From Eukaryota sp. GEM-RC1 (taxonomy: Eukaryota): a stretch of DNA of 64,000 bases. Shown piece after piece: positions 19,296 through 63,640 of this stretch. The stretch spans positions 744,001 through 808,000 of the forward strand of contig JAUFOQ010000001.1 of assembly GCA_040285855.1 (NCBI GenBank). Direction: 5' to 3'. The first letter of the stretch is position 1. Every line of letters begins with the position of its first letter. A model generated the notes under the pieces. That model saw only the letters and a list, made by a program, of their open reading frames with translations, was not told the DNA's origin and searched no databases. The position numbers and the translations under genes are program-made.

Positions 19296-20591
19296 ATGAA
19301 CCTCACTGTCTCTGCAGACCTTAAGTCGTCTTACTATGGTCAGAGACTGCTTCACTACTTCTCAATGATGTCCTCTCCACGTCTAGAAACAGTCACATCT
19401 GCTGTAGAAGGTTTTTCCCACGTCTTATCCAAACAACGATCCTTAATACCCTCATTTATTGAGTCTGGAGTCCTTCCCTCTATCCTCTCCTTTCTGGAAT
19501 CCAATTCTCTTGAACTTCAACTAGCAGCTGTCCGCGTCTTCATCAATGTTACTGCTGGTATCTGTAATGACTTGTACCAGCCTCGACTTCTTGTAAACGC
19601 CTTGTTCAAATGTGTTCAATCCAGTTCTAGTCAGTTACTTATATATCAATGTATCGTTGTTCTTGGTAACATCGCTCTTGATTCACTACACATGCGTAAC
19701 CTTATCATAAGCCTTGGAATGACCCCACTCTTGATTTCAGTTCTGGAAAAGTCTCACAGTTCCTCCACTAGTGCTTCCACTAGTGACTGTTCTATAACTA
19801 ACGTTGTTTGGTCACTCTCAGCTCTTCTTGTACGCAAACCTCTTCCCAAAGCTGACGTCATCTCGACTCTCCTCTCATCTCTCTCCCTTCTTCTACACCA
19901 CAAAACCAAGGCAGTCGTCATTAATGCTCTATGGGGTCTCTTCTACATCTCTGAGTCTACGGATCCTTCCCACACTGAACTTCTCTTAAACTCTGGTTCG
20001 TTACACCAACTTGTCCAACTCCTTCCCACTAGTACTGACACCCAGATACCAGTCTTACGAACCCTATGTAACCTCTTGTCTTCCTCAAACAGTGCCTTAG
20101 ATCTCCTTTTGACTTTTTCCTTTCTTCCCACTCTACACTCTCTGCTTGCTTTGGATAATCCTACTTTAGATTGTGACGTTCTCCGAGTGGTTTCCAATGT
20201 AACTGCAGGTACTTCTTTTCATGTATCTCAGTGTTTTAGTAGTGGTTTAATGACTTTAGTAGTTAAAAAGATGACGTCATCATGTCCACGTGTTCAAAGG
20301 GAGGCGTTGTGGTGTGTTGCCAATGCTTTAGTTAGTGGTAGTTATGATCATGCATTGTTGCTTATTGAATTAGGTTTGATTCCTAATATTTTGAATTTTT
20401 TAAAATCTACCGATGAAGAAGTTTTGGATTTGGTTTCAGTATCATTGAATAACTTGTTGTTGCTGGGAGAAAATCGAGGAGAATCAAATTTGATTTTGGA
20501 GAAAATTATTGAGGCTTACGAATCACAGTCAAAATTTCAATTATTTAAACTTGAACCAATTGATCTTTCCAATGTTTGTACAATTCAATGA
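19296..20591 (+). CDS. Importin-alpha-like armadillo-repeat protein (no obvious IBB domain)
   Basis: ARM motifs: FIESGVLP, INVTAG, LGNIALDS, VVWSLSAL, ALWGLFYISE, VSNVTAGT, QREALWCVAN. First ATG at 19296. Confidence 0.85.
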   Translation: MNLTVSADLKSSYYGQRLLHYFSMMSSPRLETVTSAVEGFSHVLSKQRSLIPSFIESGVLPSILSFLESNSLELQLAAVRVFINVTAGICNDLYQPRLLVNALFKCVQSSSSQLLIYQCIVVLGNIALDSLHMRNLIISLGMTPLLISVLEKSHSSSTSASTSDCSITNVVWSLSALLVRKPLPKADVISTLLSSLSLLLHHKTKAVVINALWGLFYISESTDPSHTELLLNSGSLHQLVQLLPTSTDTQIPVLRTLCNLLSSSNSALDLLLTFSFLPTLHSLLALDNPTLDCDVLRVVSNVTAGTSFHVSQCFSSGLMTLVVKKMTSSCPRVQREALWCVANALVSGSYDHALLLIELGLIPNILNFLKSTDEEVLDLVSVSLNNLLLLGENRGESNLILEKIIEAYESQSKFQLFKLEPIDLSNVCTIQ

Positions 20592-20767
20592 TTTTTGTAC
20601 AGTTCCCTTTGATGAGAGGATTCCTGCTTTGATGCAAGTCTTTGGAGACGTTTACAAGTTTAGAAGAGATAAGCGATTACCTCAATCGTTCATCTAAACT
20701 CTTTCTGATCGCATCAGTGTGGATTGTTACAGATTCAACAGATCTTAAACAATCTGACCCGATAGTG

Positions 20768-21185
20768 TTACTCATAGAAGTCTGTATCTCGTGATGTTTT
20801 TGACTTCAAATTGCAAATATCGATATGTTTTTGGTGAAATCTGTGATCATTTGGAAAACGCATGTTTGACATTCTTAGCTCTTTTTTGATTCTTGAAAAG
20901 AGAATTTCATCAGTTCGTTTATACCACGGACAAGTCCTATTGGTTTGTACATACCTGTGTACCGTTTGGCCGTCATACGTAACTCCAGTGAACGTTACTG
21001 AAGCAAACTTCTCCACACTAAGCTTGGTTAGATCTTGGATCGCCCAGAGATTGACAAAGTTCTTATCCCGCCGGACATACTTGTAATCCTGGTAATCCAA
21101 TGTGTGGAGAACAGCATTGTCACTTACACCCTTCTTCCTCTTAGGTTCGATAGAACGCACAACACGTGCAGGAGAAGTCATGCCT
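20768..21185 (-). pseudogene. Homologue of island orphan gene at 38710-39435
   Basis: DYKYVRRDKN..VEKFASVTFTGVTYDGQTVHRY vs DYKQVRKDKN..IDKFTSFSFTAVTMDGRSVHRY. Confidence 0.7.
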
Positions 21186-21199
21186 ACAAAGATAATACT

Positions 21200-22060
21200 G
21201 CCTGGCTCAAATTTAACTTCATATTGATCGTTTACGTCATCATAAACATCAAATTCGGTACTGAATTGTCCCATACCTTCACCTATTAATTTACGATCGT
21301 ACACTTGTTGAAAATACATGCAAAGAGGAAATAAATCATTATACTTCATATGCATACTATCAGTATCCTGATTATAAATTTTAATGTTATTTTGATAAGC
21401 TAAACACATAACTTCATTCATAATTTTTTTGCTTTCCGATAACACTAATGAATCGCATTGAGCAAAATTTTCGGGCAAGCTTACAGCGTTATAATTGTTA
21501 ATAAAATAACGTTTACCGCAAAGACCATGTTCGACATGATACCAATTTTTAATAGTTCCACAATTGTTTTCCCATTATTTCTCCTAGAGACAAAGTTCTC
21601 CGCAACATACCTGGATGCTTGTTGTATAAACGTCCTCATGTTTTTGTGAGGAGTTCGTACAACATACTGCGTTGATAATAAAGAAATATCATAACATCAT
21701 TAATGTTGGAATTAACGCCCAACCAATAAATTCCTTTTACAAATTCCCACTCAATTTCATGATATAATTCAAATTGTTGTAAATCAATAAAATTTACAAA
21801 AGATCTGTTACCTTTAACATCTCTTGAAGGAATTATTAACGGAAATTCAAGATGTTTGTTAAATTTAGTAATTTTAATTTCCAGGAAAAATGGGTGTCCT
21901 ACTTCAATTATTCTTCTGTAGTTGGACACATACCATCGAGTAGCATTGGTTTCATCACCATTCATAAATATTGCCTGTCATGTTGGATAACCTAAAAGTC
22001 TGAACATTGCATTAGGATAAACACTATTAGCGTCAAAATTAAAAGATAGAATTTCTTTCT
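21200..22060 (-). mobile_element. Polinton/Maverick-type protein-primed DNA polymerase B fragments
   Basis: NFDANSVYPNAM (motif A, ~22010-22045), SLVLSESKKIMNEV and QDTDSMHM (motif C). Frameshifted and internally deleted. Confidence 0.8.
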
Positions 22061-25886: not shown

Positions 25887-26798
25887 TAGGGTTGTTAAAA
25901 TGAGCCGAGTCAAGTCGAGTCAAGCCTACAATTTGAAGCTTGACTTGACTCATGAGTCAACCAAGCCTGACTCGAGCTGACTCATCTTGATTACCTTTGA
26001 CTTGACTTGACTCATGAGTCAACCGAGCCTGACTCGAGCTGACTCATTTTGATTACCTTTGACTTGACTTGACTCATGAGTCAACCGAGCTTGACTCGAG
26101 CTGACTCATTTTGAATGCTCTTTTCTATTGTACTTTATAACATAACACAAATCTCTACTGTTTTCTACTGATCTGAATTTAATACACCTATTCCGTACCA
26201 CGAGTGTAAACACAATAAACACCTTGCAGTATTGCAGATAGTCTAGCCCTTTCCTTTGTTACAATTTGGTTTGCAGCAGAGAACAAACGTTCAATTGCTG
26301 CTGAACTTGGCCGAATGCTTAAGTAGTCGCGAGCTGAGCAAGCTGAGCTAGGATAATCTGATTGGTAGCGTTTCCACCAATCTAGGGGATCCACCGCAGC
26401 ATCGACTATGCCTGTTGATAAGTAAGCTGTCAGCTCATCCCACACATCAACATGCAATGAATTTATACAGAGAACTGCTACTAATTCCATGTACAGGTGA
26501 TTGTACTAGAATACGTTTAAATTGTACTAAATTACATTCATTAGAGTAAACTTGAGTAGAGCTGACTCACAGACAGAAACATAGGCTTGACTCGACTCAT
26601 GAGTCAAATGAGCCTGACTCGAGCTGACTCACGGACAAAGATATAGGCTTGACTCGACTCATGAGTCAAATGAGCCTGACTCGAGCTGACTCACGGACAA
26701 AGATACAGGCTTGACTCGACTAATGAGTCAAATGAGCCTGACTCGAGCTGACTGACTCAAAGCTCAGTGAGTCAGCTTGACTCAAAATTACAATCCTA
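25887..26798 (-). mobile_element. 912-bp non-autonomous hAT element with 62-bp subterminal arrays and 8-bp TSD
   Basis: Ends TAGGGTTG / CAATCCTA. TSD AATGAGGA at 25879-25886 and 26799-26806. Three 62-bp GACTCA-rich repeats at each end. Internal DPLDWWK..ARDYLSIRPSSAAIERLFS dimerisation domain (26188-26490). Confidence 0.92.
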
Positions 26799-32880: not shown

Positions 32881-33371
32881 GTCCTCTCTTCGCAGTAACG
32901 TAATTTCGATGGTGTGGAGCTCATCATTTTTGAATATTTTTACCAAATGAACAAAATTGATTTGTTCACATTACTCATACGTCTTAGGTTCGATTCTCTT
33001 CTATAGACTTGATTAGGATTAACACACCATTTGTACCCGACTTTCTGAGACTAATCATCTACCTTATGCTGGATTGAACCCAGGGGCTGCAGAATAGCTG
33101 CAGAATTCGGTTGAGGAACTGCAACAGCACAGTCAGCAGAATTGTCTTTCCAACGTTCATAACGTTCTTCGTTGAGCACAAATCGAGCGGAAACCAAATT
33201 GTCATGTCAATGAGTTGTGCCTAAAAACGCATTCAGTACTTCAAAATTTCGGACTAATTGCAATTCACCATCTGGTGTAAGGTATAATACCCACAGCCAT
33301 TCCTTTGTATAAGTTAAACGGAACAAATACTATAACTGCTTTGACCAAGAATCAAAGTTAGGAGCTCGTGT

Positions 33372-33495
33372 AGGTCACTCAGTTTTTAAGCAAGTGACCC
33401 CGAGGTCAAAACCAGTCAGTTTTTAAGCAAGTGACCCCGAGGTCAAGGCCAGTCAGATTTTAAGCAAGTGACCCCGAGGTCAAGGCCAGTGAAAT
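33372..33495. repeat. 37-bp tandem array of the GTGACC/GGTCA site (about 3 units)
   Basis: agtttttaagcaagtgaccccgaggtcaa repeated at 33381, 33418 and 33455. Confidence 0.9.
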
Positions 33496-33607
33496 CCTAC
33501 ATCCCTAAAAATGGTATAGTAAAAAGAATCACGTTTAATACATGAAGATCATTTTTTATAGATAACATTTTTTCTATACCAGACTACACGACTTCTATAA
33601 ATGTGAG

Positions 33608-42996: not shown

Positions 42997-43352
42997 GAGA
43001 AAGAGATGATAAAAGAAATTTCACTGAAAGGGTATAGAGAAAAAAAATCACGCTTAACCCTTAAGGATGATTTTTTAACGTTAACACTTTTTCTCTACCA
43101 GACTACACGCCACATGATCGTGATCATACATGTGCATCCAGATGACTGTTAGTCGTTGTTTGCTCTTACAACTCACCAGTTGTTTACTTATAATTTGATA
43201 GTTTTCCCTTGTTGAACCAGAAATGTTAGCGAATAAATTTCTTCCTTAACCATTTGCATACACATCTGCCCACTTCTGATCATTTTAATGATGTTGGCAT
43301 TGTTGAGGACGCTGATTCTGAGATACATGAAAAGTTTCAGCTGTATGTGTTA

Positions 43353-45155
43353 TGACCTTGACCTCAGGGTCACTCAACAAAATCATCGTTTCTTCACTCT
43401 AACATGTGTTTTTCACCATTTACATACTTATACATGAGTTCTATATACATATGCAAAAGGTGATATATCAAGAACTTAAGATTCTGATAAATTTCTCTCT
43501 TTACTATACAGACTAAATGTAAAATACATATAGACTATATGAGAACATCAGATATAACTCCAAATCTTAAGTTCCTGAACTATCAGCTTTCAACAACTTG
43601 CTACAGACTATTTTTGGGTGTTCCTTGTATCAAAGATTTGGTCTAACAACACTGTGAAAAGTGGTCATTTGAGCTGCAAATACGTACCAGTGCAGTTATT
43701 TATCTACTTCTTCTTATTTGGGTGGAATATAAACCACCAATTTGTGATTCGGAAAAAAGTTAATTGAAGAATTGATATGATCTACAAATTTGAAATTTTA
43801 CAATTTCTTAAAGTGAACTATGTAACCATTTGAGTTTTAATTATACTTGGTTCATCAGCAATAGGACGCTAATAGTGTGCATTGCTTGGTTATTTTTAAG
43901 TGTGTGACATATTTCTATTCAGGAACATATAACTCATATATTCTTTGTGACCTTGACCTCAGGGTCACTCAACAAAATCATCGTTTCTTCACTCTAACAT
44001 GTGTTTTTCACCATTTACATACTTATACATGAGTTCTATATACATATGCAAAAGGTGATATATCAAGAACTTAAGATTCTGATAAATTTCTCTCTTTACT
44101 ATACAGACTAAATGTAAAATACATATAGACTATATGAGAACATCAGATATAACTCCAAATCTTAAGTTCCTGAACTATCAGCTTTCAACAACTTGCTACA
44201 GACTATTTTTGGGTGTTCCTTGTATCAAAGATTTGGTCTAACAACACTGTGAAAAGTGGTCATTTGAGCTGCAAATACGTACCAGTGCAGTTATTTATCT
44301 ACTTCTTCTTATTTGGGTGGAATATAAACCACCAATTTGTGATTCGGAAAAAAGTTAATTGAAGAATTGATATGATCTACAAATTTGAAATTTTACAATT
44401 TCTTAAAGTGAACTATGTAACCATTTGAGTTTTAATTATACTTGGTTCATCAGCAATAGGACGCTAATAGTGTGCATTGCTTGGTTATTTTAAGTGTGTG
44501 ACATATTTCTATTCAGGAACATATAACTCATATATTCTTTGTGACCTTGACCTCAGGGTCACTCAACAAAATCATCGTTTCTTCACTCTAACATGTGTTT
44601 TTCACCATTTACATACTTATACATGAGTTCTATATACATATGCAAAAGGTGATATATCAAGAACTTAAGATTCTGATAAATTTCTCTCTTTACTATACAG
44701 ACTAAATGTAAAATACATATAGACTATATGAGAACATCAGATATCACTCCAAATCTTAAGTTCCTGAACTATCAGCTTTCAACAACTTACTACAGACTAT
44801 TTTTGGGTGTTCCTTGTATCAAAGATTTGGTCTAACAACACTGTGAAAAGTGGTCATTTGAGCTGCAAATACGTACCAGTGCAGTTATTTATCTACTTCT
44901 TCTTATTTGGGTGGAATATAAACCACAAATTTGTGATTCGGAAAAAGTTAATTGAAGAATTGATATGATCTACAAATTTGAAATTTTACAATTTCTTAAA
45001 GTGAACTATGTAACCATTTGAGTTTTAATTATACTTGGTTCATCAGCAATAGGACGCTAATAGTGTGCATTGCTTGGTTATTTTTAAGTGTGTGACATAT
45101 TTCTATTCAGGAACATATAACTCATTTATTCTTTGTGACCTTGACCTCAGGGTCA
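43353..45155. repeat. Three tandem ~595-bp near-identical non-coding units delimited by four TGACCTTGACCTCAGGGTCA sites
   Basis: Sites start at 43353, 43948, 44542 and 45136 (periods 595, 594, 594). Confidence 0.95.
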
Positions 45156-45812
45156 TTTGACTTCCACTTCTAACCAATACCCTTTGAGACTTGTCCCTTT
45201 GAGACTTGTCTGGCTGAAGAACTTACAAACCTTATCTCTCTATCCCATTGTTAAATGGGTGCCAAATCCCGACGTGGTTATCTTACAGCCGGTAAAAAAC
45301 CACGTAGACTGTTTATGATAAGACAACTAAGACTGCTGGAGAACAAAATAGTACGTGGACTACAACGTGAAAGACCTTATCTTCAAATGTTTCACAGTCC
45401 CATACTACACATGTCTTTCATTCAAGAGGAAGATGTTTTCAATTATAACTGTTGTACCAGGGCAATCGATTTCAGACCTCACACGTTCCTCTGATCATGC
45501 CATACATTTAGACACATTGTCACATTTGGAAAAAAAGACAAACTTGAAACTGCAGAGCATGAGCGTTGAGTGCAATATATGTAATTATAATCATAAAGAA
45601 CAGTAAAAGATTGATCAGAAGAGATTATATGGCTACAACAACTAAAACTGCTAGAAGTATCAGTATCATTATAAAATCTATGTACAAGGTAGTTGCTTTC
45701 ATACTGAAGTCATGTAGTCCGGTAAAGACAAAGTGTTATCGATAAAAAATCATCTTCAACTGTTAAGCGTGATTTATTTTCACTATACCATTTTTAGGGA
45801 GATATGATTTTA

Positions 45813-46030
45813 CTGGCCTTGACCTCCGGGTCACTTAACTGAGTGGCCTTGACCTCCGGGTCACTTACTTTAAAAATGAGTGACCTTGACCTCCGGGTCA
45901 CTTACTTTAAAAATGAGTGACCTTGACCTCCGGGTCACTTACTTTAAAAATGAGTGACCTTGACCTCCGGGTCACTTACTTCCAAAATGAGTGACCTTGA
46001 CCTCCGGGTCACTTACTTTAAAAATGAGTA
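45813..46030. repeat. 37-bp tandem array of imperfect palindromic (lox-like) sites, 5 full units plus 1 partial
   Basis: gtgaccttgacctccgggtcacttactttaaaaatga at 45843, 45880, 45917, 45954 and 45991; shortened unit at 45813. Confidence 0.95.
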
Positions 46031-46060
46031 AATCCCTAAAATTTATTAGATTTAAAACAT

Positions 46061-46893
46061 TCAACAATTAAACGCCTGTTCAATTCCAGTAAAATCACCC
46101 ATGTCACGCGCAGCTTCAGCTATACCTTCTCCAATATAGGTAAGAGTTGTGGTACCACTCAAATGACTTAACATTTTCTTCAACGTATCCAAACGTGCTG
46201 GTTTTTCATGAGCCGGGCCACCAAATTGCCAGTAATGGTATGCAAATGTTTTCCTCATAGTATGAGTCGAAAATTTCTTCAGTCTTAACGATCTACCAAC
46301 TTCTTTGAAAACTCTAATAACAGTTTTAACACACAGAGGCTGTCGGCAGCCTAACTTCTTTTTCTCGAGTAGAATAAATAATCATTCGGAGCGACATTTG
46401 CTGCATCACAATACTCTTGCACTACAACTTTAAGCCAAAGGGAGACTTTACGGGTGACTGTAGCATTTACCCAATGTTTTGATTTTCGTTTCTTCTTTTC
46501 TTTTATAATTAAGAATGTTGCAGTTATACTGTTCTCTTTAAAATCTTTTAATCGTAACGTCAACAAATCAGAAATTCTGAGACCAAGAGCACATCCAATT
46601 TTCCAAATAGCACCATTTCGCTTTCCATTTATTCCAGGTGTCAACGCAAGAAATTCATTGTATATAACGTCAATCATATTGGGATCTTTGATTGGAGACA
46701 TTCCCTTGTGCAACTGTTCGATGCTAATATCCAAAGTACCATGATAGTTTTCATTTTGGGCTAATGAATAAGCTTGATCATCATCACAATCAGAGAAAAA
46801 AACACATTCGTCAGATGATGTTTCATCGGCATCTGATTCAATTTCAGACATGGGAATGGGATGAGGATAGGCAAAAGGGTCGTTAGAGGACAT
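46061..46893 (-). CDS. Tyrosine recombinase (phage-integrase family), one -1 frameshift in an A5 run at ~46360
   Basis: GLRISDLLTL (R), IKEKK (K), STHTMRKTFAYH (HxxR), MLSH..TTLTYIG (H, Y). Adding one A joins YLFYSR to KKKLGCRQPL..FSTHTMRK. Confidence 0.9.
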
Positions 46894-46917
46894 TGTGAGA
46901 TGATGTATGAAAAGTAA

Positions 46918-46961
46918 AATCTGAATGTGAACTTTGTTATAACAAAGTTCACATTCAGATT
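46918..46961. promoter_or_regulatory. Perfect 44-bp palindrome between divergent YR and orphan genes
   Basis: aatctgaatgtgaactttgtta|taacaaagttcacattcagatt is seen directly; its function is inferred. Confidence 0.7.
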
Positions 46962-46992
46962 CCTTCCAACTCCAACTTTTTCACAACCCTAT

Positions 46993-48159
46993 ATGAAACA
47001 TGTTAGAAAAGAAGCTATGATTAGGAAGAAGGCTCATGATAGGCACATTGTCACCACAATTAACACTTTGAGGAAGAGTGTTGTCCTCATGAAAGAAAAC
47101 TGTCCTTATGAACATGACGTTCATAGTTGCATTGGACTAGCTGATGGGTCTCTACGTCAGATAATAGGTGTGCCATTTAACCCTTGCCGGGCAACAGTGA
47201 GTGTGTATTCTTGGTATGATCCCCAATCATTGAAGTTTGCTGAAAAAAAATACCATTTCCCATCATGGATTTTGGAAAATGATATGGATGATGGTGAGCC
47301 AATCATTTTAAAAATATTGCACGATGATCTGTTCGGCCTAAGTACCCGAACGTGGCTTTTCTACTCTTTGCTGGTCGAATCTGCAGCCAACTTGACCCAT
47401 TACATTGCCTGTAATGTTCGTTGTGTAACTGCTGTGGCTGTCGATCTCCCTGCCGCACGCCAATTCCCCCCAGCCGTGAAAAAGAAACTGGACGATCACC
47501 AAAAGCCAAGCAGGGCATCACTGTATGAACTAAACCTAGCCCGCTCAAAGAAATTGGCTCTGAAGCGAAGCTGTTTCAGCCGGAACAGCAGTGTGAGCGA
47601 ATGTGATGTCAAGTTCTCTTACAGCACTGAGCATCCATGGAGTGACACTGAAGAGTGTGGATGCGATTTCCAATGGACGAACCTGGATGGGGAACTCGGT
47701 TGGATCAAAACTCAATGGAATGTGCTCACAACACAGGCTCCGAACTTTGATTCTTGGTCAAAGCAGTTGTTGTATTTGTTCCGTTTAACTTATACAATGG
47801 AATGGCTGTGGGTATTATACCTTACAGCAGATGGTGAATTGCAGTTCTTCCCAAATTTTGAGGAACTGAATGCGTTTTTGGGCACAACTCATTGCCAAGA
47901 CAATTTGGTTTCGGCTCGATTTGTGCTCAACCAACAACTTTATGAACGTTGGAAAGACCCTTCTGCTGACTCTGCTCCTGCAGTTCCTCAAACGAATTCT
48001 GCAGATATCATTCGTACTGGCTATGAAGAACCTCTTGAAGAAACAATATTGATTGAAGAGCCAGAATCCCAACAGGAGTTTAAAACTCAGACTGTAACAT
48101 TTACAGGAAGAAGTTTATTCAAAAAGAAGAAAAAGACGATAAATAAATTCAGTGTTTAA
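46993..48159 (+). CDS. Island orphan protein (~388 aa), divergent from YR
   Basis: Long uninterrupted ORF, first ATG at 46993; decayed homologue at 33060-33371. Confidence 0.75.
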   Translation: MKHVRKEAMIRKKAHDRHIVTTINTLRKSVVLMKENCPYEHDVHSCIGLADGSLRQIIGVPFNPCRATVSVYSWYDPQSLKFAEKKYHFPSWILENDMDDGEPIILKILHDDLFGLSTRTWLFYSLLVESAANLTHYIACNVRCVTAVAVDLPAARQFPPAVKKKLDDHQKPSRASLYELNLARSKKLALKRSCFSRNSSVSECDVKFSYSTEHPWSDTEECGCDFQWTNLDGELGWIKTQWNVLTTQAPNFDSWSKQLLYLFRLTYTMEWLWVLYLTADGELQFFPNFEELNAFLGTTHCQDNLVSARFVLNQQLYERWKDPSADSAPAVPQTNSADIIRTGYEEPLEETILIEEPESQQEFKTQTVTFTGRSLFKKKKKTINKFSV

Positions 48160-48222: not shown

Positions 48223-50231
48223 TTATTCTTTGTCTTCAGGCTTTATGAATTCGATTACTGTGGCCATAAACGACCCCTTAAAAGTTTTTTCATCTACTGC
48301 CACATACATTAAAGAAGGATCCCAACAGCTGCCTTTGATATTGAATGTTTCAACACATTCTTTGTGAGCTAAAATATTGGCAAAACACGTGGAAAGAGAA
48401 TTTAAGTCAGAGTCCGGATTCTCTCTACCTACAACAGAATACTGAGGGATTTCTTTAGATCTGTCAAGCACAGCTAAAATTAGAGGCAAATCTTGTTTGT
48501 CGAAACTTACAGCTCGATGAGAATACCAGGACTGAAGAAAGTGAGCGAGATAAAGTAAATTGAAAGGAAGAGTAAAATCTAATTCAGAAGGAATGCATTC
48601 AAAAATAAAAAGACGAAAGAATTGAGTTAGTTGTGCCAATTTTTCATTTAAGATTCTACGGGCAATCTTTGATATCTCTGTGATACTGGCAATAGTATCA
48701 TCGAGATAAGTTTTAAATTGATCCTCATCAGGAACTTTGAACAATTTTGAAACCAGAGAGAATGTGGAAAGCTTTTGTCTTTTATATTGATCCTCATAAG
48801 GAACTTTGAACATCTTTGAATCCAGAATGGATGTGGACAGATTTTCCCTTTTCCATTCATTTGAGCATGTAATAGAACATGTACAACATCAGAAGACGAA
48901 ATGGGAAATCTACCAGAACGTTTAAGAAAGAATTCTGAATGTGTGAAGTTTGGCAAAGAGAAAATTTTTACAGACTCAGGCCAGAAGTTGTCAAAGTTGG
49001 ATCGTTGATCTTCGGTCATATGAATAAAAAGAGTGTCATAGCTGAGTAGAGTGACACCAATTTTAGCCAACATGGTAGCCACAAGGGTTCTTCCAGTATC
49101 TTTATGGAGAGCCAATTTAGCAGCAAATAGAGGAGTATTTTCGAGAGCAGTTTTTAAGGAGCAAAAGGACAAGAAGTTGAATACGTAGTGTTGACTTGAG
49201 TTTGTTTTACTACAAATAGCAAATTGGGGGTCTGGAGTACGGCCTTGATCGCGTTCATCAATAATCCACTGCTGATGTTCTCTATCAGTAGTGTCAAATA
49301 ATTTTGTAATTCTGAAAAATAATAATCCCAATCAACCTGAGGGCAACGATTTAAGATTTGATGCTCCCTAGTTCCAAGAGCAGCAGCCCAAACTTCAACA
49401 GGAGTCTTCCTTTCAGAAAGGTACTTACATAAAAGCAGCGAAGTAGGTGTTCCAAATGACATTGGCAGTTCATAATAAGTTTGAACAAATCCAGCTTTCA
49501 AAAAACATCGATGATGGGTAAGCAACCGCACACGGATACCGTTTTCTTGTTCAATATAGACTTTTGGTAATCTCGGACGTTTTGCGGGAGGCGGCTGAAG
49601 TGGACAATCAGAATCAGATGGAGCATTAAGTGCGGCATCAAAGTTGTCTTTAGCTGGATCATAAAATTGATACAGCTCAGAAACATGCTGTGGAATATAA
49701 TAAAACTCTTCCAGGTCAGACTCTGCATCAGTAGTATCCTCTGAAGTAAGGGACAGCTTACGAGTCAGCTCATTAATTTGATTCTCAATTGAAAATTGAT
49801 CATCATCAACAATGATGATTTGTTTTTCTTCCTTCACATTGATTAGATTCACAGGACGATTGGAATCAAGAACGATCATCTTGACTTGAGGATGCGGTTT
49901 CAGCAGCTGGCGCAACCTCAATCCTCCTCCACAGTTGACAAAAATACTGTCTGCAGCCACGGACCTCCACATTCTGGGTTGCATTGAATTCTGAAATGAC
50001 GCAGAATATCTTCAGTTGAGGCAACAGAGACAACAACAAATTGAATACCGTCTGAGTGAAGTCTTTTCTGAAGTAAGACACTATGTTACGATAACATACT
50101 TCGAGAATGGAAGATGCACATAATGAATCAACACCAGGTGCAACCAAAATCAAGACAGAAATTGCATTCACATGGTGTGTGTTCTTGATCTGTTCATAGA
50201 TGAAGGGAATACGTTCGCTCTGGATCAACAT
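48223..50231 (-). CDS. CDC45: Cdc45 replication-initiation/CMG helicase subunit, full length; one 32-nt intron and three apparent single-base frameshifts
   Basis: VLILVAPGVDSLCASSIL, VNCGG, VLDSNRPVNLINV, IIIVDD, VWAAALGT, SLKTALENT..LAKIG, SSSDVV, F..PFNLLYL..LPLILA..SVVG: Cdc45 motifs in the correct order from N- to C-terminus. Confidence 0.9.
50068..50099 (-). other. 32-nt spliceosomal intron in CDC45
   Basis: GTATGTTATCGTAACATAGTGTCTTACTTCAG. Removal gives ILE-KRLHSDGIQFVVVSV, matching the Cdc45 consensus. Confidence 0.8.
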
Positions 50232-50243
50232 GGTGAAAGAATA

Positions 50244-50253
50244 TTCCGCCAAA
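50244..50253 (-). promoter_or_regulatory. E2F-like binding motif TTTGGCGGAA in the 72-bp CDC45/E2F bidirectional intergenic region
   Basis: Matches WTTSSCSS, 12 nt upstream of the CDC45 ATG. CCGCC motifs also precede other genes here, so specificity is uncertain. Confidence 0.45.
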
Positions 50254-50303
50254 AAGATTGACTATTATCACAAGCCTGAAACTTGCACGTTTTCAATTTC
50301 CTG

Positions 50304-50975
50304 ATGCACTCTTCATCTCCACCACGCAAACAGAGTCGATTGTGTCCATCTCCTGTTGACGCATCTCTGGTAGATCCTACACGGGCGGATTACTCTTCTT
50401 CTGACCTTCCCTCCACTTCAAACACTCCTTCTTTGAGTGCTTCTACGTGTAAACCTAAAGCTGTCCCCAAACGTAAAGCTACTTTCACAGCTACTTCCAC
50501 AGCTACCACTTCCACTACTACTACTTCTACATCAAAAACTCCATCACTAGAAACTTTATCTTTACAAATTTTAGAGTATGCTCAGGTCAAAGGTTCTTTC
50601 ACCTTGAAAAACCTAGAACAAGACCTACAAGTGGGTTATAGAAGGTTGTACGATGTCCTCAACATCTTATTAACAACTCCTTTATTCCATTCCACAAAAG
50701 AAAATGGAACAACAGTCTACACTTGGTGTGATGGATGCACTACAAATGACCCATTAACCATAGCTACACTGTCCTCTGACCTGTTCCTAAGTGGCGTACA
50801 GTTGCACGAATCCATTATTAGATGCCATAAACTGGAACAAGTTTTGAGAAGTGATATGAAGAAAATCAATATTGATGAACTTTGTGCTGACTTTGTGAGG
50901 AAGAGTGAAAGTGGTTGTCCTATGCCTGAGCATATAGATGCAGTGTATAGAGACATTGCTAAGGGTTTGTGGTGA
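50304..50975 (+). CDS. E2F/DP-family winged-helix transcription factor-like protein
   Basis: SLETLSLQIL..FTLKNLEQDLQVGYRRLYDVLNIL..VYTW: the E2F/DP RRxYDxxN signature with flanking SLxxL and YxW. Confidence 0.85.
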   Translation: MHSSSPPRKQSRLCPSPVDASLVDPTRADYSSSDLPSTSNTPSLSASTCKPKAVPKRKATFTATSTATTSTTTTSTSKTPSLETLSLQILEYAQVKGSFTLKNLEQDLQVGYRRLYDVLNILLTTPLFHSTKENGTTVYTWCDGCTTNDPLTIATLSSDLFLSGVQLHESIIRCHKLEQVLRSDMKKINIDELCADFVRKSESGCPMPEHIDAVYRDIAKGLW

Positions 50976-51126: not shown

Positions 51127-52203
51127 ATGTTACCACTTCTGAAACGTTCAAGAGATTCAGGAGCTCTACGAGAGGACATGACCTTGGTACGAGGTGATGT
51201 ACCCAAATCTCGGTCAATTAGCATTCAACAGTCCTTGAAAGGGCTGATCTTACTGCACTTGGCTAGAGGTTTCTTCTCTGACTGTTGCAACATTGATGCC
51301 ATCTCACAGATGCCAATTTTCTTCTACATGTTCGGCCTTGTCAGTAGTGATTGGGTCTTCTGTACTGAAATAGCTATCAGGGTATTTCTCGAAACCCATA
51401 CTTTTCGGTATACTCCAGGTGAAGTTGATCCTGGCTTTCTCAATGTAGTTTCCTACTATGGTGCTACTCTTCATTTTATTACCCTTTCGTTACATAACCG
51501 CTGGGAGAATGTACACGAAGATGACCGCTCCCTGATCCTCGCGAACGCAACTGCAGTGACAAAAATTTACATGTCTGTGGATGATGACTCAATGTTAACT
51601 TGGATACAGTCAACAGCCAACGAAATGTTCCCTCGCCTTCAACAAGTACATTTATTAATTCTTAACAACATTTCCCATACAATGTTGATTGAAGTCTTAA
51701 GTGAAAGTACCAAAATCGTCCGAATTGATTTGCAAAGCAAGTATCGCGAAAGAATTAATCTGAGATTAAATATGTTCTCAACAGTTTTACCAGTGAATAC
51801 TAGTTTAACTCATATCAGCTTTACGCGTAATTCTATTGGAGATGATGGTGCTCTTTTATTATCCAGAGCTTTGGAAAAGAATGCCACTCTAAGAAGTCTT
51901 AATCTCAGTAACAACTTTATTGGCGACTTTGGTGCAATTAACCTCTTCTTGTGTGGAATGGGAACACTCACTATTTCAAAATTATCTACTCTCGATCTAA
52001 GTCGTAATAATATTACCAATTCCGGTGCTGTTGCAATTGCTCAATTCCTAAGACAGAATTTTACCTTACGTTCTTTGGATCTTAGCGAAAACCGTATTGG
52101 AGTTCACGGTAAAGAATCACTGTTGCATCTCAATCAGTATAAGGTAAATCCAATGACTCTGGACGTTGCCAAACAAAGACCTGTACGAGAGCAATTCTTA
52201 TGA
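51127..52203 (+). CDS. RI/NLRC3-like LRR protein
   Basis: C-terminal NxTLRSLxLSxNxIG repeats; intact 358-aa ORF. Confidence 0.85.
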   Translation: MLPLLKRSRDSGALREDMTLVRGDVPKSRSISIQQSLKGLILLHLARGFFSDCCNIDAISQMPIFFYMFGLVSSDWVFCTEIAIRVFLETHTFRYTPGEVDPGFLNVVSYYGATLHFITLSLHNRWENVHEDDRSLILANATAVTKIYMSVDDDSMLTWIQSTANEMFPRLQQVHLLILNNISHTMLIEVLSESTKIVRIDLQSKYRERINLRLNMFSTVLPVNTSLTHISFTRNSIGDDGALLLSRALEKNATLRSLNLSNNFIGDFGAINLFLCGMGTLTISKLSTLDLSRNNITNSGAVAIAQFLRQNFTLRSLDLSENRIGVHGKESLLHLNQYKVNPMTLDVAKQRPVREQFL

Positions 52204-52349
52204 ATGTAATTGTATTAATATAATTATCATTAGTACTCAATATTTTCTAAAATAAATATAACTACAAGCAATAGACTGGAAGTAGTTAGATGGGGATAGA
52301 TATATAGATGTTGAACACAAATTTGTTGTTGCCACTAAAATCTGTGCAA

Positions 52350-53317
52350 ATGTTCCCACCTTTGAAGTGCAGCAGAGATGAGGATGATCACATGTATGTA
52401 TCAAACCCAAGAGATCCATCTAAACCAAAAACTATTGATCTTCAAGAGTCTTTGGTGGTATTGATACTGTCACACACCGCGAACCGTCTTCTGTGTCAAT
52501 GTTCATGTGAATTCCTGTGTTCTGCTAAACTTCCTTCTTTCTTCAGGAAGTTTGGATATCTAAGCGAGACTTGGTTTGATCTCGCTAGATGTTCTGTAAA
52601 GAGATTCTTTTCCAACAACACCTTTTCACTTTCTGCTCCTTTACACTCTTGTTTTTTCCCCGTAGCTGCGTTCTTTTCAGCTAAGATACAGTCTGTGAAC
52701 TTATTTTTGTTTGACAGTATCGAAAAGCAAGAGGTTAAGGACCGCTGTTTAATCTTGGACAAGGATAATACATATGCTGTGGGACAAATTTATACATGTA
52801 TCAGATGTGATGATTGTCTTCCATCTTTAAATCTTTCTACAAATTTATTTCCCCGTCTACAACATCTGCATGCTCGTGTGTTTCCAGAGGTAACTGGCGA
52901 TGTCTTGTATCCTTTTTGAAGTCTAATTCAACTATTACCAGTCTTTGTCTTTACACAAAGGGTCGCTTTTCCAGATGTTTCGGAATGAAGGATGTATTAC
53001 GAGGTAATATGTCTTTGCTTCATGTTGATCTTTCTAACAATTTAATTGATGACAAGGAAGCAAAGTCTCTACTTCAAGCTTTAAGATGTAATTCTACTTT
53101 GAGAAGTCTCGACCTCAGTTGTAATCTGATTGAGAATTTGACTGCTGCTAAAATAGACGAATGTTTAAGTACTAACAGAAGTTTAAGAACTCTTGATGTT
53201 AGTATGAACTACATATCCGCAGAAAATGCTGCTGAGATGGCCTTGTATGTGAAATTAAAGAAGTTGGCATCTTTGATTTCTATTGATGTTTCTGATCAAG
53301 AATTATACATTAGTTAA
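52350..53317 (+). CDS. RI/NLRC3-like LRR protein, tandem paralogue of 51127-52203, one frameshift at ~52880
   Basis: MFPPLKCSRD vs MLPLLKRSRD, FPRLQ shared; LRRs lie in the -1 frame (52814-53317). Confidence 0.75.
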
Positions 53318-53423
53318 TTTATAAAATTTATGTTTAAAATATTTACTAATAGATAGTTAATAGAACCAATCCAATGTCAAAGAGAACAATTCGTCTCAAC
53401 ACAACTAAGAAACAAATAGACAT

Positions 53424-54477
53424 TTATTGATCCCTAAACCGTCTTCCAAATCGTTGCTGCAGTTCTTCATGTGTTAAAGAAGCATTTAAATCTTTAACTC
53501 CAGATAGTAAGAGTTCAAGAACAACAATATCATTTGACATCTTAACCAAAGCATCATCTACTTCATTAATAACCTCGTCATCAATTAGAATAAAATTCTG
53601 AATTCGAGAGAATAGATCATTGTATAAGTAAAAAGGAAACTCTTTCGAAATGAGTGTAACAAGGTAAATAACTATAAGAGAGCAATGACAGTGATCATTA
53701 GTGATGGCAAAAGGTTGGTATGCATTGAAATAAAGGTTACTGGAGAATCCAACATTATTAGTGACATTAGACTTGGTGTATTCAATCATCTTCTGAACTG
53801 GCGATAAAACAAGTGAATGATTTAAATGTCCAGAAGAATAAATTGTAACATAATATTCCATGTGAATAAGTCGGAATTTTAAAACATGCCAAGACGCATT
53901 CTTAGAACAAGGATTGGCATCCAAAGAAAAAAGCAGTGAAGATTGTACGACCAGAGTACAGCTCATTCATAAAAGTGTGGCCAACAGAAGTACTGAGAAA
54001 AGAATACGTATTTTGCAAAAAGGAAAGACAGCTGGTCACAGGAAGATACAAAGTTTCCAAAGAAGAACGTACAAGAAAATAAATTGACATGTCAATCAAA
54101 GGAATTGAAATGTGATCTTGTACAAGGAGCTGATGAAGAATAGATCTCGGCTTGAACAACTGAGAAATATCCAAGATAAAGGGATAAGTCTTTCTAACAA
54201 TGGGGATGATGGATTCAATGTTGAATCCAAGAAAACCATCACCTTTACGTTCAACGAGAAGATTGAAAGTAGTTGAATTAAGTAAAAATTCTTGACGATG
54301 ATCATAGATATTCTTAGATTCATCAAAAGTTTCTGAATGTTGCTGAAAGTCCAGAAGATACAAAGGTCGCCGTGCGTATGAACTACGACTGGATTTTGCA
54401 AAATACTCACCTGATTTGGTGTATTGGATGAAAGATCCAATTTCCACATAGATGGTGGTAGGAAGGTTTATGTACAT
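53424..54477 (-). CDS. Island orphan protein, probably one gene split at a T6 run (~53930)
   Basis: Overlapping 191-aa and 180-aa ORFs; no recognisable motif. Confidence 0.5.
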
Positions 54478-54555
54478 GTAGAAAAGAAAAGTGAACGAAA
54501 TGAACTAATTTGTTATATTGAATCATGAGAAAAGGAAATTCAGTTGCCTTACACC

Positions 54556-54951
54556 ATGTCCATCCCAATCTTTGATAAGCTACTGGATGAGTTTCGATCT
54601 GTGACAAACAAAACAGGTGATGTATTCAAAATTGTTTATGACCGGAACGGTGGAGCTTCATGGTTTGTTGGACTGCCTGACATTGAGGGTGTGGATCGTA
54701 CGACTGCCCCAATACAGGTATACTTCCAATACGTCATTAACCAACATTTAATCCCTGCTCTTGAATCGAATGATGTCGAATCTTTCCCTGGTGCTGTGTA
54801 CCTTCTGCACTTTTTGGCCAATTCAAATTCTGAATTGGCAAAGAATTCTGAAAAGAACATTACAGGCCATGTAATGGGTAAAGTTGGCGGAGAATACGAC
54901 AAGCAAACGGTAAAAGAGCGACGTTCGGATACTTATTATACATCTGAGTAG
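54556..54951 (+). CDS. Island orphan protein (~131 aa)
   Basis: Open frame with ATG, divergent from the 54477 gene, protein-like composition. Confidence 0.5.
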   Translation: MSIPIFDKLLDEFRSVTNKTGDVFKIVYDRNGGASWFVGLPDIEGVDRTTAPIQVYFQYVINQHLIPALESNDVESFPGAVYLLHFLANSNSELAKNSEKNITGHVMGKVGGEYDKQTVKERRSDTYYTSE

Positions 54952-55625: not shown

Positions 55626-56100
55626 CTATGAGTCTTCTATGAGATTCCCCTCAAAGTCAAATAGGTAGCTGATATCGTCAGCGGATTGCGAACGATCATG
55701 TGGTTTATCACACATTAACGTTGTTTTTTCGGATTTAGTAAGATGAGGTCCCAGGTATTCAATGATTACCAAATTACCTTTTAAGTCGATCATACTAAAA
55801 ATTCCCGCATTGGCTCCTGGAAAGGAAGAAGGGCCAACATAAATAGGCACAAGAAGTTGGGTTAGATGCATCAATTGACCATAAGGGATCGACGTAACTT
55901 CCTCGACTGACATTCCAAAAGTACGAAATAGGATTTTTAGTATTTTTTGTCCAAAGTTCTGCTTTCCTCCTGGCTTCATCACAAGAAGTAACAATGCCAG
56001 TGTACTCCATTATAATTATTCTAGGTGGGAGCATTATGGTGACAAAAACACCTAATCCTGCATCTTTAATGGTGGACGGCTTCACCTCGAGAGGAACAAA
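55626..56100 (-). CDS. SET-domain-like protein with two tandem SET N-terminal halves (frameshifted)
   Basis: VKPSTIKDAGLGVFVT..IIMEYTG..SYFW..IDAS and YVGPSSFPGANAGIFS..IIEYLG..SYLF. The ORF track labels 55795-56085 as + but the translation is from the - strand (GTG at 56085, TAG at 55795). Confidence 0.65.
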
Positions 56101-56328
56101 AGCTCCTCAATTATTATAAAAACAATACAACGCTACAAATGTTCTCTTTTTTTTGGCAGAAAGCAGTGACCTAGCTAATAATGCATGGGGTCTGGAATTC
56201 TGGTCCCGGATCAATCACTTCTTGAACTTGATTTTCATTAATCATTTCTGGCGCTACAGATTCTTCATTAAACGAATTTAAATAATCAGAATATTGTAAC
56301 ATGGGATTAGAGAGTGCGTCTTACATCT

Positions 56329-59410: not shown

Positions 59411-60139
59411 ATTTTGAATAAATGTTTTTATTGTTTCTATTTTTGAAATATATTTGATTTCACCATATCTTTTGTTGATGTTGTTTATATACAACTTATA
59501 CGCAACTACCGAGATGTTGTTTACATACAACTTCGCATCTCTGTAGATGTTGTTTATAGAGAACTAGGTTGAAGTTCTGAATGGATAAAATCCTTCATCC
59601 ATCGAACAGAACTACAAGAAGATGAATTGAACAAAACAAACACATAAGCGAAGTCTGGAATTTGAGTTACCACATTGAAAATTTGAAGGGCAATTCAGCG
59701 TGTCATTTTTCCTTCTTCGAATTCGAATTTCTGTCTCTTCCTTTCAAAATAACGCAGTGTTTACAGCAGTGAACTTGCTCATTCTGTTTTGTTAACCATA
59801 CACTGTGTGGTATTGCAAATAGTACTTCGCCACAGTTGCCATTGGAATGTCTTTAGAAAATCAGAAGAATCGAGGTTACGTTGCTTACCAGAAAACATGA
59901 AATTGGGAATTTGCATTACAGTGGATTACGGTAATCTGACGTAAAGAGAAACAATTGAAGTGAATGTGACCACTGGCGGTATTAAAACTTTAAGTCTATC
60001 CGTTTTTGTGAGATCACGACTCTTTATGTTTGCTCTCACTAAACTGTTTGTATTACAATTTTGCAATAAACGAATGGACTGTAAAGAAGTATCAAATTTT
60101 TAGGTATGATTCACGATTCTAAATTTCTGATTTTCTGCC

Positions 60140-61660
60140 GTTACGAGCTGCCTCCACAAGACTTCTGAGAGCAAAGTTCACGTTTTTCTTGGTAGGACAT
60201 TTCTTTCGACAAATTGGACAGTTATTTTAAGGAGAAGCGCAGTGAGAACATGCAGTGTGTCCAAGTTTACATAGAAGCAATGGTAGGCGGTCAGAAAGGT
60301 TGAAGGAGTCAGAGCAGATGAAACAATCCATAGCAAAAGTGGTGAAAAGATGAGCATTTAAACACTATTTCAAAGTTTGATACCTAGGAAACACAGATAC
60401 ACTACATCCTACATTGATTTGTAACATGTACTTTCTATTTTGTGTATACTATGTATTTTGTGCATTTTCCTCAACTGCTTCTATGACAAAGGAGCTGAAA
60501 GGTTAACCATCAGTCTGTTATCATAATAACCAGCAACTATTGACCAAATAGTAACGTTGAAATTTTCATACATAGTGAAAAAATGCATTGCGGTGAATCC
60601 GCCACTGTGGATATCTAACAGTTTTTGTTTCAGTGCAAATGGAAATACATTAAGTCATCGTTATATATATCTGGTAAAGGTGATAAAATCGTCAAATGAG
60701 ACGAATTTGATAAAAACAAAATTCAAAAAAGTTGAAAAAGGGAATAGAGACGGACAACAACTCAAATCTAAATTTGCTGGCCATTAGACTAGATTTGACT
60801 TACAAAAATGGGTTCGAGCGGAGTCTGAATTGAGTTGATCACCCATCATGATGCCTAAATTTCCGGTTCTCTGTACAAGTCTGAAAAATCCGTCACTGTC
60901 TTCCTTTGAGATTCGCAATGAACTTCACTGTCTCTGCAGACCTTAAGTCGTCTTACTATGGTCAGAGACTGCTTCACTACTTCTCAATGATGTCCTCTCC
61001 ACGTCTAGAAACAGTTATATCTGCTGTAGAAGGTTTTTCCCACATCTTATCTAAACAACAATCCTTAATACCCTCTTTTATTGAGTCTGGAGTCCTTCCC
61101 TCTATCTTCTCCTATCTAGAATCCAATTCTCTTGAACTTCAACTAGCAGCTGTCCGCGTCTTCATCTGCTGGTATCTGTAATGACTTGTACCAGCCTCGA
61201 CTTCTTGTAAACGCCTTGTTTAAATGTGTTCAATCCAGTTCTAGTCAGTTACTTATATATCAATGTATCGTTGTTCTTGGTAACATCGCCCTTGATTCAC
61301 TACTCATGCGTTACCTCATCATAAGCCTTGGAATGACCCCACTCTTGATTTCAGTTCTGGAGAAGTACCACAGTTCCTCCACTAGTGCTACCACTAGTGA
61401 CTGTTCCATAACTGACGTTGTTTGGTCACTCTCAACTCTTCTTGTACGCAAACCTCTTCCCAAAGCTGACGTCATCTCACCCCTCCTCTCCTCTCATCTC
61501 TCTCCCTACTTCTACACCACAAAACCAAGGCAGTCGTCATTAATTCTCTATGGGGTCTCTTCTACATCTCTGAGTCTACAGACTCTTCCCACACTGAACT
61601 TCTCTTAAACTCTGGTTCGCTACATCAACTTATTCAACTTCTTCCCACTAGTACTGACAT
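60140..61660. repeat. Direct segmental duplicate of 17279-20040 (RING-coding start of the kinase gene, intergenic DNA, importin-alpha)
   Basis: High DNA identity; lacks the 17777-18306 hAT insertion and the ~18430-19110 segment. Confidence 0.9.
60918..61660 (+). pseudogene. Importin-alpha-like pseudogene (frameshifted, 3' truncated)
   Basis: Near-identical to 19296-20040 with indels at ~61166 and ~61480. Confidence 0.85.
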
Positions 61661-61906
61661 CCTATTCTATACCATCCTATTCTAAATCGAGTAGACTTTC
61701 CAAGTCTTCGTAACAACATTGTTACGAAACACATCATTCAACAGTGATGGTGACACGAACATGAATCAGTTAGGTCTCTTGATTCATATAGGTTGTGATT
61801 TTGATCGAATTGTTCCTAGAAGTGACTTGCAAAGATCGAATATTCTTATACGAAATTGAAAGGCTTTTGTCGCGTCCAAAATGATCTCTACGACATTCCC
61901 GTACCA

Positions 61907-63640
61907 TTATCCTGAGCACATAACTTCATTCATAACTTTTTTGCTCTCTGATAAAACAAGCGATCCGCAATGGGCAAAATTATAATGAAGATTAATTGAA
62001 TTGTAATTATCGACAAAATACCTATAAGACTTATTGTGAGGTACAGTCATCCACTTTTTAATTGTTCCATAATTTCCCTCCCAATATTTACCACGGTTCT
62101 CCAGACCACGATCGAGATTCAGATTCTCGAAGTTCTGGTCCCAGAAATCGGTCAACGTCATAAACTACAGGCCTAGTAGCTCTTGGACTACGACGGACAA
62201 CAGATGGACGGGGTATGAACTGCATTGAGCAAAATTTTCGTACAAGCTTACAGCGTTATAATTGTTGATAAAATAACGTTTACCGCAAAGACCATGTTCG
62301 ACATGATACTAATTTTTTATAGTTCCCCAATTTTTTTCCCAATATTTCCCAAATTCAAAATCTCCATCTTTAACAACAAAAGAACTAATTGACGGTTTTT
62401 GAATGGTTTTGCCGTAAGTTCCATTCATAAATAATTTTAAAAGTAACTGTTGGGGATTCTTCTGTTCTTTAAGTTACATTCGATTATCGTATATGAATTT
62501 CATAACTTCATTGATTTTTGAATTATATTCAATCCAATAAATTCATCTTTTAAATTCATATGTAATTCCATGATATTGTTGAAATTGTTGAAGATCAATA
62601 TAACTAATGATCATAGTATCGTTAACTCCGGTTTCAACGTTATTAACAAATTTCCTATTTCCTTGAGAATCTGTGACAGGGATTAAAGGAAAATCTAAAG
62701 AATTTTGAACAGACAAAATTCTGATTTCGATATAGAATTGATAATCAGAATTAATGACCGACTCGTAAAAATGAGGACTAGAAGGGTTTTCACTCATTAT
62801 AAGAGCAGCTCCGACCGGAAAACCCTTCAGTCTTTTCATCGCAGTGGGATATAAACTTTTTACGTCAAAGTCTACCATAAAATCTTCTATAAAAATTCCT
62901 GTTGAAGATTCCACAACGTTGGATCCTATCTCATTCAAAGAGTATCTAACGGGTTTGTAAAATTGTTTTTGATACTGATTGGTCATAACACGACCTCCAA
63001 TAACTGATTGTTGCACAAACTGACGTAACGATCCAGTTACACTCCGTCATATACTCCTTGAGAAATCATAACATCGTGAGACAATGACGAAATCGTACGA
63101 TAATTAAATAGATCTATTTCAGGAAATAACTGTCCCAAATCTTTACGAAAACGAAATAATCCTTGACCTAATAATAAATGTCTTGAATTGTGTAAAATAC
63201 AGAATAATTTTGATGCAAAAGTTAAATTCAGAGACATTACGTTCGACGTTAAATGTTTCTTGTATTGATTTTGATTCCACGCAAGATTCAATAAATTCTT
63301 CACGTTCTTTATAAGTATTAAAGAACTTTTCAGCCACATTGTCTACCGTATCAATGTAAGGAACATCAAGATCAGTAACAGTAGGAAAATCATTGTAAAA
63401 AGGATAAGGATAAGCTTCTTTTTTTACCTTTAATTTGAACATTTTAGGAAATTTAGCCAATGCTTCAGGAATAATTTTCAAAGAATCTCTAAAATGTATT
63501 TTGATTGTTCTTGAATCTCCAAATTGTTGACCACATTTAAACGATCCCTCGGCAGAATACAATGCTCCATCTTTTTGCAACACCTTTAAATCAAATAAAT
63601 TTCCGTGCAAAAAGAAAAATCATATTTTAGATTGTGCAAA
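61907..63640 (-). mobile_element. Polinton/Maverick-type protein-primed DNA polymerase B pseudogene
   Basis: FRDSLKII..LAKF..KEAYPY (exonuclease region), SVIGGRV, VDFDVKSLYPTAM (motif A), KLFMNGTYGKTIQ (motif B, ~62400-62440), HCGSLVLSESKKVMNEV. Confidence 0.88.

Follow-up and report, generated by a model that had tools for sequence, protein, structure and literature searches.

The locus

The stretch of DNA analysed here (64,000 nucleotides, called the window below) is carried by a 3.98-Mb contig, a repeat-rich protist chromosome. It is AT-rich, with about 37% GC, and holds many repeats and broken mobile genes. The DNA of the window is eukaryotic and is no recognisable virus genome. Within it, a CDC45 gene and a gene of the E2F family lie head-to-head, and Skoliomonas-group metamonads are the nearest named relatives for both proteins. 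The genomes of this group have been reported to be 28–55% repetitive (PMC11316075, accessible text). The ATGs of the two genes, at 50231 on the minus strand and at 50304 on the plus strand, and the 72-bp gap between them were confirmed as given in the initial annotation. The pair comprises the following features.

48223..50231, minus strand: CDC45 gene, broken as assembled (Pfam CDC45 on the pieces, alignment to GEMRC1_007069)
50068..50099, minus strand: putative GT-AG intron of 32 nt in CDC45 (score 131 against 104 for the next, best of the 16 candidates listed; gapless against the CDC45 relative P0002)
49940..49944, minus strand: frame shift 1 of CDC45, one base short, in a T5 run (top-scoring positions 49945-49939)
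49277..49306, minus strand: frame shift 2, likewise lacking one base; the A4 run 49305-49302 scores best, but the position is loose (946 against 945 across the range)
48842..48866, minus strand: frame shift 3, one base short (the score does not fix the position; the A4/G3/A4 runs at 48852-48842 are likely)
48703..48840, minus strand: tandem duplication of 69 nt (23 aa) in CDC45, whose copies differ at 9 of their first 60 nt; the second copy is closer to the relative
50232..50303: intergenic gap of 72 bp, putative shared promoter
50244..50255, minus strand: E2F-type site TTTTTGGCGGAA, 12 nt upstream of the CDC45 ATG
50304..50975, plus strand: E2F-family gene, 223 aa, single domain (Pfam E2F_TDP, alignment, predicted structure)

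The CDC45 gene

The minus-strand gene had been named CDC45, and this identity stood, as its pieces match Pfam CDC45 in order with 49.6 and 41.4 bits (cut-off 34). What had been overlooked is that the gene as assembled consists of four ORF pieces, made by the intron and three single-base deficits. With the intron removed and three unknown bases added (at about 49942, 49304 and 48850), it reads through 659 codons with 0 stops. The read-through shows 276 identities over the 580-aa GEMRC1_007069, and the homology is collinear over the full length. P0002 matches solved CDC45 structures at 1e-31, and a word-index search with it found no further CDC45 (1 of 7994 scored). A protein divergence of about 50% without a stop in 659 codons points to long purifying selection on CDC45. 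One matched segment scored 41.4 bits here versus 59.4 in GEM-RC1, a comparison of one segment in one relative, which suggests that this CDC45 is also more diverged than its GEM-RC1 counterpart.

Only shift 1 of the three is firmly within a homopolymer. Because P0002 aligns without gaps across shifts 1 and 2, introns were dismissed as their cause; programmed -1 frameshifting was dismissed as well, since inspection by eye showed no X-XXY-YYZ heptamer at shift 1. Among the six breaks examined in the gene block, five lack a single base and show no stop codons, those of the LRR2 and tyrosine recombinase (YR) genes included, and the sixth has the opposite sign. The near-identical tandem repeats of the window likewise differ by single-base gaps in runs of at least 4 (3 of 3). 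It suggests that the single-base deficits are long-read homopolymer errors, or else very recent damage. The assemblies of published relatives were Illumina-corrected according to the accessible text of PMC11316075; if the present assembly was corrected likewise, real frame shifts would be favoured.

The E2F-like gene and its protein

The naming of the plus-strand gene as E2F was upheld by the profile search: the 223-aa ORF matches Pfam E2F_TDP at residues 80–131 with 33.4 bits, above the curated cut-off of 25.7, and retains the RRxYD..N recognition helix (R113, R114, Y116, D117 and N120, in RRLYDVLN). The AlphaFold model has a mean pLDDT of 79, rising to 96–98 across residues 81–150. Its layout is an S/T/P-rich disordered N-terminus of about residues 1–80, modelled with low confidence, and a winged helix at residues 82–141. 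After the winged helix, the model predicts a 30-residue helix (153–182) and two short helices; it is all-helical beyond residue 141 and has no beta-rich marked box. Fold searches returned generic winged helices (the highest Z was 10.1); the matches listed included no E2F.

Pfam gave no match in the protein to the marked-box/coiled coil (PF16421) or to the DP domain (PF08781). No Rb-binding/activation segment is recognisable, and the 82 residues after the winged helix, which are predicted to be helical, appear to leave no room for one. These results agree with the earlier statement that the protein lacks a recognisable Rb-binding region. The second DNA-binding domain that is the trait of atypical E2F7/8/DEL proteins is also absent, as one Pfam stretch and one winged helix were found. 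Conserved basic residues of the wing are lost (K130 to S, R133 to E), among other changes at positions conserved in the subfamily, and this may weaken or alter DNA binding by the protein. For E2F8 it was reported that the A/T flanks are read by basic residues outside the recognition helix (PMC4686757, accessible text).

The shared gap and the E2F-type site

The E2F-type site of the gap contains TTTGGCGGAA (minus strand 50253-50244) inside TTTTTGGCGGAA, at 12 nt from the ATG of CDC45 and 48 nt from that of the E2F-like gene. We take TTTSSCGS to be the E2F consensus. This motif has 2 occurrences in the 64 kb and is found in 130 of the 63,928 72-bp windows; a Markov model gave P = 0.004 for a 72-bp gap, and dinucleotide shuffles of the gap contained it in 67 of 5000 cases. 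The chance of TTTSSCGS in the gap is therefore 0.002–0.004 by window and 0.013 by shuffles, and the E2F-like motif seen initially does lie above chance (P 0.002–0.013). The looser WTTSSCSS, present in 233 of 5000 shuffles, has a chance of 0.016 by window and 0.047 by shuffles. Among the 16 gene starts examined, TTTSSCGS was found only at the two that share this gap, so the motif is not a common core-promoter element. The CDC45/E2F arrangement is real and more than chance.

The size of the gap is another matter. All seven intergenic gaps in the block measure 63–151 bp and all three divergent ones 72–99 bp, and a divergent gap of 72 bp is ordinary for this block. It has been reported that in the metamonad Giardia short promoters are inherently bidirectional (PMC1885649, accessible text).

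The consensus given in the accessible text of PMC4686757 is TTTC[CG]CGC with the core GGCGGG. The gap site equals the E2F8-preferred TTTTTGGCGGGAA of that text minus one G, and equals its E2F2-DP1 SELEX site less one G as well; the core here is GGCGG-A, versus GGCGGG. The human CDC45 promoter was described as having a functional E2F site (PMC5716687, accessible text).

A single-domain E2F subfamily of metamonads

The phmmer search of the E2F-like protein against 1.84 billion representatives returned 36 matches including itself. A low-complexity match of 2946 aa (P0026) was excluded from alignments and counts, and the other 34 relatives were scanned. E2F_TDP was matched by 34 of 34, 32 of them above the cut-off, and E2F_CC-MB or DP domains by 0 of 34 at E 0.01. 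From the RR motif to the C-terminus the window protein has 111 aa, versus a median of 104 among the 32 of 35 rows having the motif. Since relatives of the same length also lack marked box and DP domains, the missing Rb region is a trait of the subfamily and not a truncation; a truncated E2F ORF was rejected because the relatives are equally long. For the same reason, the idea that the absence of an Rb-binding region marks this protein as specially deregulated or viral found no support.

Organism names among 30 of the 35 non-self matches covered 14 proteins, namely 13 from organisms that we take to be metamonads and 1 from Luapelamoeba, and none was named as viral. The closest named relatives are GEMRC1_003350, P9112_003406 and RCL1_002350, with 36–42% identity. 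A word-index search for relatives gave 386 candidates, in which the sole match was the query itself. The E2F-family structures matched by the subfamily profile are the DNA-binding domains of E2F8, E2F4 and DP2, and no others.

The tree was built from 16 of the 35 rows (the named ones and two close unnamed ones) after trimming, with the long-branch RCL1_003309 left out. The E2F-like protein nests in the Skoliomonas clade as sister to GEMRC1_003350 with support 98/95, and quick trees of 35 and 17 rows agree with this placement. Keeping it apart from the three published Skoliomonas proteins was rejected by an AU test (p=0.018). Its branch is 1.66 versus 0.14 for GEMRC1_003350, about 12 times longer, and the Skoliomonas tips other than the window protein have branches of 0.14–0.35. 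The relative-rate comparison counted 32 unique changes versus 10 (p=0.001, outgroup P9112_003406), with the same direction for 4 of 4 outgroups. Core identity between the window protein and GEM-RC1 is 48%, versus 64% between GEM-RC1 and TZLM1-RC. Our sequence comparisons indicate that the E2F-like protein is evolving much faster than its GEM-RC1 sister. RCL1_003309 (P0018) is a second, very long-branched E2F-like paralogue in Skoliomonas sp. RCL; divergent duplicates thus occur in the genus.

In the literature covered, with subscription papers outside it, we found neither a description of a single-domain metamonad E2F subfamily nor a report of an element carrying E2F and CDC45. For Trichomonas, E2F/DP proteins are described in the accessible part of PMC4862756, which reports the three subfamilies throughout eukaryotes; its supplementary trees may already include the single-domain metamonad E2Fs. 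The main text of the Carpediemonas genome paper (PMC8516963) leaves E2F and Cdc45 unmentioned.

Linkage of the pair in relatives

The GEM-RC1 counterparts GEMRC1_007069 (CDC45) and GEMRC1_003350 (E2F-like) lie on different contigs, of 2.55 and 3.72 Mb. CDC45 was present in 0 of 3 other, metagenomic loci of the E2F subfamily (6.0, 1.4 and 9.0 kb). As the counterparts are unlinked in GEM-RC1 and these three loci have no CDC45, we conclude that the CDC45/E2F pairing is derived. At locus L001 the E2F-like gene has an unrelated WD40 gene as its head-to-head partner. No E2F-type site was found in the 5' gap of the E2F-like gene in L001 or L003, the two loci having such a gap. Positions 1188-1198 of L002 hold a full canonical E2F site, TTTCCCGCCAA, directly 3' of the stop codon of the relative's E2F-like gene, which is possibly the promoter site of the next gene.

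Flanking repeats and remnants of mobile elements

On both sides of the pair the following features were recorded.

45814..48159: left flank (array, recombinase, palindrome, 388-aa ORF)
45814-46029: tandem array of 37-bp units, beyond the tyrosine recombinase
46061-46893: tyrosine recombinase (YR) with one frame shift, within the left flank, 3.3 kb left of the gap
46918-46961: perfect palindrome of 44 bp, lying between the 388-aa ORF and the tyrosine recombinase, which are divergent
51127..54951: right neighbours (two paralogous LRR genes, one gene without assigned family, a 131-aa ORF)
54852-54935: inverted remnant of the 388-aa ORF family, inside the 131-aa ORF
55629-56106, minus strand: two tandem SET-like segments, broken, recognised by eye (no Pfam match)
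60737..63619: decayed importin-alpha-like ARM gene and remnants of a protein-primed DNA polymerase B (pPolB), about 10–12 kb rightward

The 44-bp palindrome and the 37-bp array may serve a YR-type mobile element as recombination sites or as operators. The 388-aa ORF gave no family match and no Atlas match. It represents a repeat family of which the window holds two further remnants, one lying in inverted orientation across the block. The ARM and pPolB unit occurs twice in the window (19115-21977 and 60737-63619), with ARM copies 93% identical; it looks as if a host-type gene and a Polinton-like polymerase move together.

Other repeats were seen further away. Three near-identical tandem units of 594 bp lie at 43027-45793, flanked by 81-bp inverted repeats, and have a partial inverted copy at 33.1-35.4 kb. 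Arrays of 62-bp repeats surround a remnant of a hAT dimerisation domain at 25906-26756. An intact 722-aa RING-kinase-LRR gene occupies 15301-17469 on the minus strand, and a duplicate of its 5' end is found at 60137-60599.

Origin and possible control of the pair

Our tentative explanation, to which we give slightly less than an even chance, is that CDC45 and the E2F-like gene are fast-evolving extra copies that became joined as a unit, which would be co-transcribed and controlled via the one predicted site. The extra copies are suggested by the accelerated rate together with the lost linkage; a single fast-evolving species would yield the same rates. Ordinary single copies are the rather unlikely, still appreciable, alternative, where CDC45 keeps an ancestral E2F site in its promoter, a rearrangement within a compact gene island brought the E2F gene next to CDC45, and the breaks stem from errors of the assembly. 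The block with its seven short gaps (63–151 bp) and the bidirectional promoters of Giardia (PMC1885649, accessible text) agree with such an island, as do the position of the site nearer to the CDC45 ATG (12 nt) than to the E2F ATG (48 nt), the predicted spliceosomal-type intron in CDC45, GC3 values like those of neighbouring genes and relatives without the CDC45/E2F pairing. The roughly 12-fold longer branch is nevertheless hard to explain by species divergence when the other Skoliomonas tips are at 0.14–0.35, and the chance of an E2F gene landing beside one of about 50 replication genes (50 assumed) among about 14,000 is near 1%, in a rough, post hoc estimate.

We regard it as clearly unlikely that the pair is the cargo of a large integrated element, with YR on one side and pPolB on the other, that pushes the host into S phase or supplies its own subunit of the CMG helicase; this reading comes close to what was proposed initially. 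Such an element would fit with the YR gene, palindrome and repeat array directly left of the pair, the inverted remnants of the 388-aa ORF family on both sides, the SET-like remnants (by eye) and the pPolB with its importin-alpha-like gene rightward, this pPolB unit being present twice in the window, and with two genes that look accelerated and newly linked. However, neither capsid nor packaging ATPase nor protease was matched in 102 frames with Pfam or 30 with PHROGs, libraries that are weak for divergent capsids, in a window that ends inside the pPolB region. IMG/VR gave no confirmed relative for 5 of 5 queries (E2F alignment, ORF388, CDC45 piece, pPolB and YR), a search sensitive to close relatives only. 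Within the window, neither common terminal repeats nor a recurrence of the block were seen, CDC45 does not follow the left-flank repeat in its other copy (33094-33595), and the Rb-less form of the E2F protein is inherited from the host subfamily. It is similarly improbable that an integrated element took a host CDC45 and an Rb-independent E2F from two chromosomes and set them head-to-head around one E2F site as a self-regulating replication cassette, with which it would control the expression of S-phase genes and provide a helicase subunit of its own. We judge it very unlikely that CDC45 is a duplicate that died recently through genuine frame shifts and that the site is a relic of its old promoter. 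Three shifts and a 23-aa duplication within 2 kb, plainly decayed pPolB, SET-like and ARM copies nearby, and a neutral-decay simulation in which zero stops in the CDC45 frame has P 0.18–0.54 would suit a dead gene, but the three shifts share their sign and bring no stops, LRR2 and YR have the same sign, and neither the E2F ORF nor the site is damaged.

Most likely, the 72-bp gap would drive both genes, and an E2F-family dimer, likely including the E2F-like protein, would bind the site via the RRLYD helix. The E2F-like protein, probably a coiled-coil homodimer, would couple CDC45 to the expression of its own gene independently of Rb. It would more likely damp than drive transcription, damping being favoured because no activation segment is recognisable. 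By analogy with E2F7/8, repression or negative feedback would be at least as likely as the feed-forward activation proposed initially, and activation by the E2F-like protein may also occur, given the Giardia E2F1. Phosphorylation of the S/T-P-rich N-terminus could serve as control of the protein.

Comparison with known systems

The short metamonad E2Fs (GEMRC1_003350, P9112_003406, RCL1_002350, KAJ3430968.1 of Anaeramoeba and KAG9390272.1 of Carpediemonas) have the same single E2F_TDP domain with the RRxYD..N.L.TTP signature. Like the window protein, they continue with a coiled-coil-like helix, have about 100 residues after the RR motif and carry no CC-MB/DP. An N-terminal DPTRA motif is common to the window protein and the three Skoliomonas proteins. 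In contrast to these short E2Fs, the window protein is far more diverged, has lost wing residues and is linked to CDC45.

The RRxYD winged helix is shared with typical E2F1-6/DP, whose marked box and DP domain are missing in the window protein, where no Rb-binding segment is recognisable either. E2F7 and E2F8 are not known to bind Rb and are repressors. They have two DNA-binding domains per chain, whereas the window protein has one and a predicted coiled coil. PDB 4yo2, from these atypical E2Fs, is the best solved structure for the subfamily profile (E 2.6e-10). Compared with the window site, the E2F8-preferred TTTTTGGCGGGAAAA has one additional G (PMC4686757, accessible text). The human CDC45 E2F/CLE promoter holds an E2F site according to the accessible text of PMC5716687, like the window CDC45, for which the site is predicted.

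Giardia E2F1 was not among the named phmmer matches of the window protein. It reportedly has two DNA-binding domains. The accessible texts of PMC5607323 and PMC7866390 relay reports that it binds and activates cyst wall genes as well as the promoter of thymidine kinase. The viral hijack of E2F targets, by E1A and T antigen or in the SBF/KilA-N hypothesis (PMC4862756, accessible text), shares the idea of an Rb-independent factor at E2F sites; E1A, T antigen and KilA-N are viral and unrelated to E2F, whereas the window protein is of the E2F family and of host descent.

The main solid gain of this study is a single-domain E2F subfamily without recognisable marked box, DP and Rb-binding domains, spread across metamonads. 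The E2F-type site before a metamonad CDC45 suggests a very old E2F-to-CDC45 link, in a setting that may lack Rb control. Should the pair be a derived second copy or mobile cargo, it would show how a replication switch can be rebuilt out of host parts. The best ESM Atlas feature match (0.91) places the E2F-like protein with a cluster of E2F_TDP proteins of 173 aa, 93% archaeal and mostly from Thorarchaeota; these are short single-domain E2F-like proteins, similar to the subfamily in size, and we note the cluster as a lead only.
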